From NCBI GenBank assembly GCA_001785445.1, contig MFTV01000010.1, forward strand, positions 101,566 through 165,565: a stretch of DNA of 64,000 nt, read 5' to 3'. Source of the stretch: Candidatus Nomurabacteria bacterium RIFCSPHIGHO2_02_40_30 (lineage in GTDB: Bacteria > Patescibacteriota > Minisyncoccia > Phycocordibacterales > UBA9973). The notes beneath the pieces are model-generated. The model ran no database searches and was not told where the DNA came from. It saw only the letters and a list, made by a program, of their open reading frames with translations. The translations under genes were made by a program, and so were the position numbers. Each line of letters begins with the position of its first letter. Position 1 is the stretch's first letter. Of the stretch, positions 50,140 through 57,237 are shown in pieces.

Positions 50140-50799
50140 ATGATAAAAATTCAGCCTATTGTAAGGAATATAGTTATGAGTGAGCTCGAAGCCTATGTGG
50201 CATTAACCAACGGCTACATGAATATGAGCAGTTATGCGCACAGAATACGTCCCCTAGTGGAAGAACATGCCAAAAAACAAGTAACCATTACCAGCCTCGT
50301 AGTTTCCTTATCGCGCCTGCGTAAAGAGTTTAAAAAAGAAAAGCCACTTATTCAAGAAGTTGTCATCGCTAATATCACTACCAAGCTGCCGCTGACAGAC
50401 ATTGTGTATGAAAATACTGACAGCATAATTAGCAAACTCGAGTCCTTTCATAAAAAAATTTCTATTTCACGTGAAGATTTTTTCACTACCACTATAAGTA
50501 CCACTGAACTCAATATTATTTGTTCATCGAACATTGCTGGCAAGGTATTAAAACATTTCGGCATCAAGCCAAAGTTCACTGCGCAGAATCTGGCGGCAGT
50601 CGGCATCTCATTCAGTGAAAAACAATTCACTATTCCAAATACACTTTTTTCTTTATATTCCGTCATCGCCCGAGCGCGTATCAACATCATTGAAGTGGTC
50701 TCGACATATACAGAACTAATTTTCATCATCGAAGAAAAAAACTTCAGCCAAACCGTAGCCCTATTTTCCGAACTGCACCGGAAAGTAAACAGAGAATAA
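50140..50799 (+). CDS. free-standing ACT-like protein, paralog 1 (possible aspartokinase regulatory subunit or ACT-sensing regulator)
   Basis: The C-terminal half reads like the aspartokinase ACT region (LAAVGISFSE...INIIEVVSTYTELIFIIEE...LFSELH). Collinear with 56572-57237. Confidence 0.6.
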   Translation: MIKIQPIVRNIVMSELEAYVALTNGYMNMSSYAHRIRPLVEEHAKKQVTITSLVVSLSRLRKEFKKEKPLIQEVVIANITTKLPLTDIVYENTDSIISKLESFHKKISISREDFFTTTISTTELNIICSSNIAGKVLKHFGIKPKFTAQNLAAVGISFSEKQFTIPNTLFSLYSVIARARINIIEVVSTYTELIFIIEEKNFSQTVALFSELHRKVNRE

Positions 50800-50838
50800 A
50801 ATCTACCATCTCGAACATATGTAAAAGATAGTAGATAG

Positions 50839-50870
50839 TTGTGAATTTACGCATATGCGTGATTTCACAA
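50839..50870. repeat. 32-bp near-perfect palindrome in the ACT-1 / dapF convergent gap
   Basis: TTGTGAATTTACGCAT|ATGCGTGATTTCACAA, with 14 of 16 positions symmetric. Confidence 0.7.
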
Positions 50871-50945
50871 CAAAAATGTTTAAGTATTACTAATACAATA
50901 GCAACGGCCGTGGTTATTGTGATAATAACAATAATATTAAATTAA

Positions 50946-51740
50946 TTAGACCACTTCCACTATACCGCTGAAAACGGACACGGCGGGGCCGCGCATGATT
51001 ATGTCGCCTTGTTCGTTTTCAGACATATATAATTTTCCGCCCGGTAATTCTATGATGAGTTCTACATCAGCGTTTTTATATTTCCTAGCTGCCGCGTACA
51101 CTGCGCAGGCTCCTGTACCACAGGCAAGAGTCGCCCCGCATCCCCTCTCCCAGACTTTTACTTTAAATTCGTTAGAACTTTTTTGCTCCACAAACTCAAC
51201 ATTTATTTTATTTGGAAAAATTTTATTGTTTTCTATCTTAGGACCCAGTGTAGGTAAGTCATATTTGTCCAAATCTTTTACAAAAGTTATGGCATGTGGG
51301 TTGCCGACAGAAACAAAATTAAAATCGAATCCTTCTAATTTTGTATTTTTATCCGGAAAATCTGTGTGCACAAAAACAGCTTTCCCCATATTTACCGAAA
51401 AAGTATGGTCATCATTATATTTTATTTCTTTTGTACCTGCGCGTGTATCTATTGTAAATTTAGTTTTATTTTTTGAAAAATTGTCTTTCAAAAATTTTGC
51501 TACACAGCGCACACCGTTTCCGCACATCTCGGCTAGTGTTCCATCAGAATTATAATAATTCATAAAGCAGTCCCCTTTTTCTGAAGATTCAACTAAAATA
51601 ACGCCATCACCTCCTATGCCTTTATTTCTGTCACAGAGAAAAATAATTTGCTCTTTTGATAAAACAATTTTCCCATTTATATTATCAATGACTACAAAGT
51701 CGTTCCCCAGTCCATGCATTTTTGTAAAGCCTATATTCAT
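50946..51740 (-). CDS. dapF: diaminopimelate epimerase
   Basis: FTKMHGLGNDF, with catalytic Cys contexts MCGNG and GCGATLACGTG. Confidence 0.9.
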   Translation of the reverse strand: MNIGFTKMHGLGNDFVVIDNINGKIVLSKEQIIFLCDRNKGIGGDGVILVESSEKGDCFMNYYNSDGTLAEMCGNGVRCVAKFLKDNFSKNKTKFTIDTRAGTKEIKYNDDHTFSVNMGKAVFVHTDFPDKNTKLEGFDFNFVSVGNPHAITFVKDLDKYDLPTLGPKIENNKIFPNKINVEFVEQKSSNEFKVKVWERGCGATLACGTGACAVYAAARKYKNADVELIIELPGGKLYMSENEQGDIIMRGPAVSVFSGIVEVV

Positions 51741-54885: not shown

Positions 54886-55797
54886 TTATTTTATCAACTT
54901 TAACTCTTTCAAGACTTTCTCTATGATAGGCCTATTTTTTTCTTCGATAAAAGTTAACGGCAATCTGAAACTTTCTGTGATAAGCCCCATTTGGGCCAGA
55001 GCCGTCTTTACCGGAATGGGATTAGACTCGATAAAGTTAACATTCATCAAGTCAAGAAGTTTATAGTGTAATTTCTTTGCTTCTTCTAATTTACCTTTGA
55101 GAGCGCAGTGAATCATGTCAGAAAATAATTTTGGGGTCTCGTTACAGACCACAGAAATACAGCCTTTGCCTCCAAGAGCAATAAGAGGCAATGCCAAGGC
55201 ATCATCACCAGATAGAACGACAAAGTTTTTAAGATTTTTGGAACCGTTTTTTGCTTCGTTTATAATTTCCATCATCTGGTTTAATGAACCGGAGGCTTCT
55301 TTGACTGCTACAACTTTTGGCACTTCTCGCGCTATTTTGATAATAGCTCCCGGCTGTATATTAGAACCGGTTCTCCCGGGAACATTGTAAATAATGATAG
55401 GCAGATTCACAGCTTTTGAGATTGCTTTAAAGTGAAGCACCAGACCGGCAGGAGTCGGCTTGTTGTAGTAAGGCGTTACGTGAAGCAGACCGTCCACTCC
55501 GGCGGACTTGGCCAGCTTAGAAAAGTGAATCGCTTTTTTAGTATCATTGGAACCGGCTCCGGCAATGACCGGAATTCTTCCTGCAACTTTTTTTACTACT
55601 GTTTTTACAACAGTAATATATTCTTCATCGTTGAGCGTAGCTGCTTCTCCAGTGGAGCCGGCAACCACAATGCCATCCACTCCGCCTTTGAGCTGATATT
55701 CAACCAACTTCTCCAATGCCGGTAAATCCAAATCTCCATTTTTCTTAAATGGTGTGACTATTGCCGGAATTGAGCCAAAAAATTTTATTTTTTTCAT
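54886..55797 (-). CDS. dapA: 4-hydroxy-tetrahydrodipicolinate synthase
   Basis: GSIPAIVTPF, GSTGEA, YNVPGRTG, and the Schiff-base Lys in VAVKEASG. Start taken at MKKIKFFG; the track start at 55821 is also possible. Confidence 0.9.
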   Translation of the reverse strand: MKKIKFFGSIPAIVTPFKKNGDLDLPALEKLVEYQLKGGVDGIVVAGSTGEAATLNDEEYITVVKTVVKKVAGRIPVIAGAGSNDTKKAIHFSKLAKSAGVDGLLHVTPYYNKPTPAGLVLHFKAISKAVNLPIIIYNVPGRTGSNIQPGAIIKIAREVPKVVAVKEASGSLNQMMEIINEAKNGSKNLKNFVVLSGDDALALPLIALGGKGCISVVCNETPKLFSDMIHCALKGKLEEAKKLHYKLLDLMNVNFIESNPIPVKTALAQMGLITESFRLPLTFIEEKNRPIIEKVLKELKLIK

Positions 55798-55798
55798 T

Positions 55799-56476
55799 TT
55801 ATATTTTGAATAAATGTTCAAAAGGATACATCCCTTTTTTGTTACTAATAAATTTGGTAGCTAATAATGCCCCTTTGGCAAATCCCATTCTACTGTATGC
55901 TTGATGAGAAAATGTGATGCCATCAGCGACGCTGTCGAACACCACTTCGTGGAAACCTGGGTTTCTGCCCGCACGAATTGAAGTAAAGTTTAATCCATTG
56001 ACTTTGCTCGCAATTTTCAAGGCAGTACCGGAAGGACTGTCGAGCTTGGCTTTGTGGTGAACTTCCAGCCCATACACATCATAATCCGGAAATTTAGCAA
56101 AAAGCGAAGAGGCAAAATCCATTATCTTGAAAAATATATTTACTCCCACCGAAAAATTCGGACTGTAGACTAAACCTATTTTATTTTTGCTGACTAATTT
56201 TTTTACGGTATCCATTTTGTCATACCACCCAGTGGTGCCTATGACCATATTCACGCCGAGCTTTCCTACTTGCTCTATATTCTTTATAACCACATCCGGT
56301 GAAGTAAAGTCTATGGCAACATCTGCTTTTTTAATACCTTCTACGTCCAGCTTGTCATTTATATTTTTATAACTCACTGAAACCACTTCAAAATCTCGAG
56401 AATCTTCACATAGAGCATTCACTTCTTTACCCATTTTTCCAAAGCCAATTAAGGCAATTTTTATTCTACTTTTCAT
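55799..56476 (-). CDS. dapB: 4-hydroxy-tetrahydrodipicolinate reductase (short form)
   Basis: IALIGFGKMGKEV, GTTG, and HHKAKLDSPSGTA. Confidence 0.85.
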   Translation of the reverse strand: MKSRIKIALIGFGKMGKEVNALCEDSRDFEVVSVSYKNINDKLDVEGIKKADVAIDFTSPDVVIKNIEQVGKLGVNMVIGTTGWYDKMDTVKKLVSKNKIGLVYSPNFSVGVNIFFKIMDFASSLFAKFPDYDVYGLEVHHKAKLDSPSGTALKIASKVNGLNFTSIRAGRNPGFHEVVFDSVADGITFSHQAYSRMGFAKGALLATKFISNKKGMYPFEHLFKI

Positions 56477-56571
56477 TTATATATAGGATAACAAGTATAT
56501 TAGTAGAAGTTAAATTTTTTAACATTAACACTGTTATTGCAACTTTTTGTTAAATCTATTAGAATATCAGC

Positions 56572-57237
56572 ATGATAAAAATACAGTCAGCTGTGCGAGA
56601 TATAGTGCTAGAAGAAATAGAGGCTTATTTTGCCCTAACCAACGGCTACATGAATATGAGCAGTTATGCGTACCGGATAAAGTCAAAGGTAGAGTTACTC
56701 ACAAAAAAGCACACAACTATAGCGAGTTTGGTGGTTTCCCTCTCCCGCCTTGCGAAAGAACTGAAAAAAGAGAGACCGCTGATACATAAAGTAGCAATAA
56801 AAAATATTACTACCAAACTTCCACTCACGGAGATAGCTTATGAAAATAGTACCAAATTCATTGAGAAGTTGGAATCATTGCATAAAAATATTTCTGTATC
56901 TGCAGAAGACTTTTTTACTACAACTATTGGCACCACAGAAATCGATATTATTTGCTCGTCTAATCTGGAGGCTAAAATTTTGAAACATTTCACTATGAAA
57001 CCGAAGTGGGTAAACCATAACTTTGCCGCCATCGGAGTTTCTTACGGTCCGGAAGTTTTCGGCACTCCAAATGTTTTTTTCTCCCTTCTCTCGGTAACTG
57101 CTCGCGCCCGCATCAACATAGAAGAGCTGGTCTCCACGCCCACCGAGCTCATCTTCATCGTGGCCGAAGCTGACTTCGGCAGAACCGTGGCTCTGTTTTC
57201 AGAGTTGCACAGAGAAGTAAACAATGATAACCTATAA
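56572..57237 (+). CDS. free-standing ACT-like protein, paralog 2
   Basis: Gap-free alignment to 50140-50799 (about 55-60% identity by eye). First gene of the rpsU-ybeY-ftsA unit. Confidence 0.6.
   Translation: MIKIQSAVRDIVLEEIEAYFALTNGYMNMSSYAYRIKSKVELLTKKHTTIASLVVSLSRLAKELKKERPLIHKVAIKNITTKLPLTEIAYENSTKFIEKLESLHKNISVSAEDFFTTTIGTTEIDIICSSNLEAKILKHFTMKPKWVNHNFAAIGVSYGPEVFGTPNVFFSLLSVTARARINIEELVSTPTELIFIVAEADFGRTVALFSELHREVNNDNL

Follow-up and report, generated by a model that had tools for sequence, protein, structure and literature searches.

Two paralogous proteins that flank the lysine/diaminopimelate (DAP) genes resemble amino-acid-sensing regulators of gene expression more closely than they do subunits split off from the truncated aspartokinase encoded next to them. 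We put at about even the chance that they are one-component, amino-acid-sensing transcription regulators, DNA binding being a predicted property. The initial annotation of this DNA had favored a split aspartokinase and mentioned transcription factors as an alternative; of the two, that alternative is now the better supported, by the divergent gene layout, the conserved upstream module and the basic N-terminal domain with its DNA-bound structural matches, and is as yet unproven.

All the open reading frames called in the initial annotation are present in the window, i.e., the whole 64-kb stretch of DNA that was analyzed (Table 1), and their coordinates confirm that the paralogs flank the dapB-dapA-dapL-asd-aspartokinase-dapF block, each divergent from a lysine gene. 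The gap is 95 bp in both cases (50045-50139 between lysA and paralog 1, 56477-56571 between dapB and paralog 2), and the paralogs are separate genes on the strand opposite to the kinase, ~1-4 kb away from it. They align collinearly and without gaps, as had been described, but the by-eye estimate of 55-60% identity was too low: the actual value is 66% (78% similarity, 219 residues, E 2e-105). Proteins of Candidatus Nomurabacteria bacterium RIFCSPLOWO2_02_40_28 match the sequence with 100% identity. Every score behind the lysA, dapF, asd, dapL, dapA and dapB calls exceeds the curated NCBIfam cut-off. Neither a lysine riboswitch nor any other Rfam element was found in the 46-60 kb part of the window, so that another layer of control is needed.

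Table 1. Genes and upstream elements of the lysine/DAP region (window coordinates).
Feature	Position	Strand	Remarks
lysA (diaminopimelate decarboxylase)	48863..50044	-	TIGR01048 388 bits, cut-off 297.9; divergent from paralog 1
Palindrome GTTAA-TTTTT-TTAAC (block 1)	50075..50089	.	exact pattern match; 30 nt from lysA start codon
Block 2, ACTTTTTGTAAAATC spacer + extended -10 (TGATATTAT)	50108..50133	+	ends 6 nt ahead of paralog 1 ATG
Paralog 1	50140..50799	+	219 aa; type 1, 'STYTELI' subfamily; four-helix basic N-domain residues 1-72, tandem ACT residues ~78-217
dapF (diaminopimelate epimerase)	50946..51740	-	TIGR00652 277 bits; last gene of the operon
ACT-less aspartokinase	51737..52639	-	300 aa from MSLIINKFGGG; Pfam AA_kinase E 8e-28, 98 bits
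asd (aspartate-semialdehyde dehydrogenase)	52644..53651	-	NF011456 417 bits
dapL (LL-diaminopimelate aminotransferase)	53651..54883	-	TIGR03542 531 bits
dapA (4-hydroxy-tetrahydrodipicolinate synthase)	54886..55821	-	TIGR00674 351 bits
dapB (4-hydroxy-tetrahydrodipicolinate reductase)	55799..56476	-	TIGR00036 149 bits; first gene of the operon, divergent from paralog 2
Palindrome GTTAA-ATTTT-TTAAC (block 1)	56509..56523	.	pattern match; 32 nt from dapB start codon
Block 2, ACTTTTTGTTAAATC + -10 TAGAAT	56542..56565	+	ends 6 nt ahead of paralog 2 ATG
Paralog 2	56572..57237	+	221 aa; type 2, 'STPTELI' subfamily; architecture as in paralog 1

The kinase had been claimed to lack ACT domains, and its coverage of Pfam and NCBIfam profiles agrees. 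Aspartokinase models account for its 24 best NCBIfam matches, with lysine-sensitive aspartokinase III first (E 3e-46), but the match is confined to positions 3-291 of the 452 in that model, which implies that the ACT part is absent; it is this absence that keeps the scores under the full-length cut-offs. The aspartokinase motifs KFGG and GxxGSDxTA are visible in the translation. The nearest full-length relatives are aspartokinases of 416 aa from Bacteroidota (37-43% identity), and ~39 clusters (at 90% identity) of ACT-less enzymes of the window type turn up before them. No second kinase was detected in the window with tblastn, and the ACT tail of a full-length relative has no match anywhere across it.

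In the AF2 model of a paralog (pLDDT 88.6), four helices are followed by two ACT units, and the C-terminal ~150 residues fold as in aspartokinase beta (regulatory) subunits. A Foldseek comparison of the ACT part with the PDB gave E 4e-8 and TM 0.67-0.71 for the top matches, and each of the best 50 PDB matches listed is either an aspartokinase regulatory subunit or the ACT region of a full-length aspartokinase. A profile of the family likewise ranks aspartokinase regulatory chains first among PDB sequences (E 6.5e-4), with no other relatives there at the sequence level; structure and profile comparison thus both bear out the aspartokinase-type tandem ACT that had been read in the C-terminal halves. 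Paralog 2 also weakly matches positions 226-403 of 407 in TIGR00656, the monofunctional alpha/beta aspartokinase class. The Pfam gathering thresholds of ACT_7 and ACT_9 are not reached (paralog 1 scores 17.9 bits with ACT_7 against a cut-off of 27, paralog 2 has no match), and distant family members score 13.9-23.2 bits with ACT_7, again below 27; despite these scores, the fold as modelled is ACT. The nearly invariant P166-N167 pair falls, in the profile alignment, on the Pro-Gly ('PG') motif of aspartokinase chains, a position that we take to be the beta1-alpha1 loop, where ACT domains bind the amino-acid effector. Type 1 and type 2 are told apart only by positions within ACT2, and by none in the N-domain, which fits a common DNA site combined with different effectors.

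The N-domain, modelled separately with pLDDT 91.9, has a mean net charge of +3.8 compared with -1.8 for the ACT part. The positive charge is centered on loop 45-49 and helix 4, and N28, K46 and R59 vary little or not at all. No helix-turn-helix or other DNA-binding model in Pfam or NCBIfam matches this domain at E<=1, its profile has no relevant match among PDB sequences, and Foldseek against the PDB returned nothing (best E 2.5). The best structural matches are DNA-bound BEN domains and homeodomains (4x0g, 7yuk, 7yul, 4cyc, 6fqp) with 5-11% identity. These are eukaryotic families, and Foldseek recovers none of them; the likeness may be a generic resemblance between small helical bundles.

Upstream of almost all family genes lies a module in which the palindrome GTTAA-N5-TTAAC (block 1) is followed by a fixed 15-nt spacer and an extended -10 promoter (block 2) located 6-8 nt before the ATG. 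In the consensus, which was built over 54 loci, the two blocks are exactly 15 nt apart in 52; the promoter block is present in 66 of 70 upstream regions, with the -10 element 6-8 nt from the start codon in 54 of the 66. The window contains only two copies of the promoter block, at paralog 1 and paralog 2. A family member with 44% identity retains the AAGTTAATTTTTTAC box, and additional copies of the whole module, distant from any family gene, flank putative targets at four loci (L009, L021, L035 and L067). The end of block 2 only 6 nt before the paralog 1 ATG implies a leaderless mRNA, and the center of the palindrome is about 56 nt upstream of this predicted leaderless start. As the palindrome is ~30 nt upstream of the start codon of the divergent gene, it is expected to overlap with the promoter of that gene. 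On the opposite strand, block 1 resembles an extended -10 element (TGTTAAAAA), and the module could instead serve as a promoter in both directions, with some other factor binding to it.

The family, mostly from Patescibacteria (candidate phyla radiation, CPR), comprises 1281 representatives at 50% identity (E<=1e-3) and is unnamed, without a Pfam or NCBIfam model. Nearly all members are standalone proteins of 208-226 aa that match end to end including the N-domain; kinase fusions are absent among the best 150. In a survey of about 66 Paceibacteria loci (duplicates removed), the first divergent gene is a dap operon in ~12 loci and a CBS/CysK-like PLP enzyme in at least 17, other cases being DapF, the ACT-less kinase alone and, for type 1 members, lysA; only ~16 of the loci encode an aspartokinase within +-10 kb. 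All of six distant members (36-44% identity, where given) are divergent from the neighbor, with a gap of 110-128 nt, and among their partners are a homocitrate/isopropylmalate-synthase-like gene and a GNAT plus M20 peptidase pair; none of the six has an aspartokinase within 8 kb.

If the aspartokinase is split, the paralogs would dock on the ACT-less kinase, perhaps via the N-domain, and provide feedback inhibition with two effector specificities. Aspartokinase beta subunits are indeed the closest structures, regulatory chains of these enzymes are the sole sequence-level relatives in the PDB, and the kinase ends exactly at the boundary between the catalytic and ACT parts. Furthermore, all 12 aspartokinases adjoining family members are ACT-less (290-322 aa), despite belonging to at least three groups that are mutually ~30% identical, a pattern that a split enzyme predicts. 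However, next to these kinases the paralogs are 60-93% identical, and orthologs of paralog 2 retain 83% identity where the kinases of the respective genomes share 31%, which is unexpected for an obligate interface. The majority of the family has no aspartokinase inside 8-10 kb and is found beside other enzymes instead, and the 1281 family clusters at 50% identity greatly outnumber the ~39 clusters at 90% identity of the window-type kinase. In no case is a paralog co-transcribed with the kinase; it is always divergent and has a conserved promoter of its own. The kinase resembles enzymes of the aspartokinase III/Bacteroidota type, whereas the paralog has its weak match in the monofunctional alpha/beta class; hhalign of the paralog family with a Bacteroidota enzyme yields no match, and the family shares no specific similarity with the ACT tail of the 416-aa Bacteroidota aspartokinases. 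The reading of the initial annotation, in which the paralogs are detached from this kinase as its regulatory subunits, is not supported, given the scarcity of nearby aspartokinases, the unequal divergence and the lack of ACT-tail similarity, and we consider a split enzyme unlikely.

The beta subunits of alpha2beta2 aspartokinases (Corynebacterium glutamicum LysC-beta, Thermus, Mycobacterium tuberculosis and Pseudomonas aeruginosa; 3ab4, 2dt9/2zho, 3s1t, 5yei) have the tandem ACT of ~150 residues in common with the paralogs, at only 8-15% sequence identity. They are produced from an internal in-frame start of the kinase gene and are thus identical to the C-terminus of the alpha chain, whereas the paralogs have genes of their own on the other strand and carry an additional 72-residue basic helical N-domain. 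Beta subunits pair with the ACT domains of the alpha chain, of which the adjacent kinase has none to offer, and they occur together with the kinase, whereas most members of the paralog family have no kinase nearby. The ACT subunits of acetolactate synthase are usually co-transcribed with the enzyme and have no additional helical domain. That enzyme has its ACT regulatory part on a polypeptide of its own (IlvH/IlvN/IlvM), and IlvH/IlvM are a precedent for ACT regulatory subunits encoded apart, as a split aspartokinase would have them (10.1101/2024.10.14.618325).

The transcription regulators that we favor would follow the logic of well-known families, albeit with DNA-binding domains that have no sequence match in the paralogs. 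In Lrp/AsnC, TyrR/PhhR and NikR, a small DNA-binding domain is combined with an ACT or ACT-like (RAM) beta-alpha-beta-beta-alpha-beta ligand-binding module, and these regulators typically control their own expression and are often encoded divergently from the operon that they target. We know of no described regulator in which a four-helix domain is followed by an aspartokinase-type double ACT. We propose that the double-ACT module, which would derive from, or share common ancestry with, the aspartokinase regulatory domain, dimerizes and binds an amino-acid effector, the candidates being lysine or a diaminopimelate species, possibly different for the two paralogs, and that the basic four-helix N-domain binds the palindrome GTTAA-N5-TTAAC. 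Then, lysA would be controlled by paralog 1 and the dapB-dapF operon by paralog 2 (we infer the direction of regulation), and each paralog would also be positioned to act on the promoter of its own gene. Allosteric feedback would be missing from the ACT-less aspartokinase itself, and control of the pathway would have shifted to transcription. A more inclusive scheme, which we regard as a long shot, is that an aspartokinase-derived double-ACT sensor fused to an undescribed DNA-binding fold constitutes a CPR-wide regulator family that, in Paceibacteria, controls the formation of lysine and of the diamino acid in peptidoglycan and, where aspartokinase is kept, is also the missing allosteric subunit, acting on transcription as well as on the enzyme.

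GcvR and eukaryotic CASTOR1 use ACT pairs for signaling via protein contacts, and the paralogs might be stand-alone amino-acid sensors that contact RNA polymerase, another regulator or varied enzymes and bind neither DNA nor the kinase. The tandem ACT fold, the lack of a recognizable DNA-binding family and the variety of neighboring enzymes are compatible with such a sensor, as is the mean column identity of 74% among Paceibacteria members, which is expected with several interaction surfaces. This possibility is quite unlikely, leaving unexplained the fixed-spacing palindrome, the extra copies of the module and both the basic charge and the DNA-binding-like structural matches of the N-domain, and the neighborhood contains no conserved candidate partner. 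Highly improbable is a dual function, in which a paralog acts as a repressor at the lysA/dap promoters and, where an ACT-less kinase is present, docks on it as well for feedback inhibition: it unites the lack of ACT domains in adjoining aspartokinases with the features of the module and the N-domain, but is less parsimonious, and nothing here points to two separate interfaces.

Gene regulation in Patescibacteria is an almost unexplored field. With 1281 clusters at 50% identity, the present family is large; it is also strongly conserved and comes with both a candidate operator and a promoter predicted to be leaderless, so that the regulator, the DNA site and the likely effectors (lysine, DAP) are testable in vitro, without cultivation. 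In these proteins, a regulatory module of aspartokinase appears to persist as an independent protein, and the existence of natural ACT-less aspartokinases in several deeply diverged groups bears on the reorganization of feedback control in reduced genomes.

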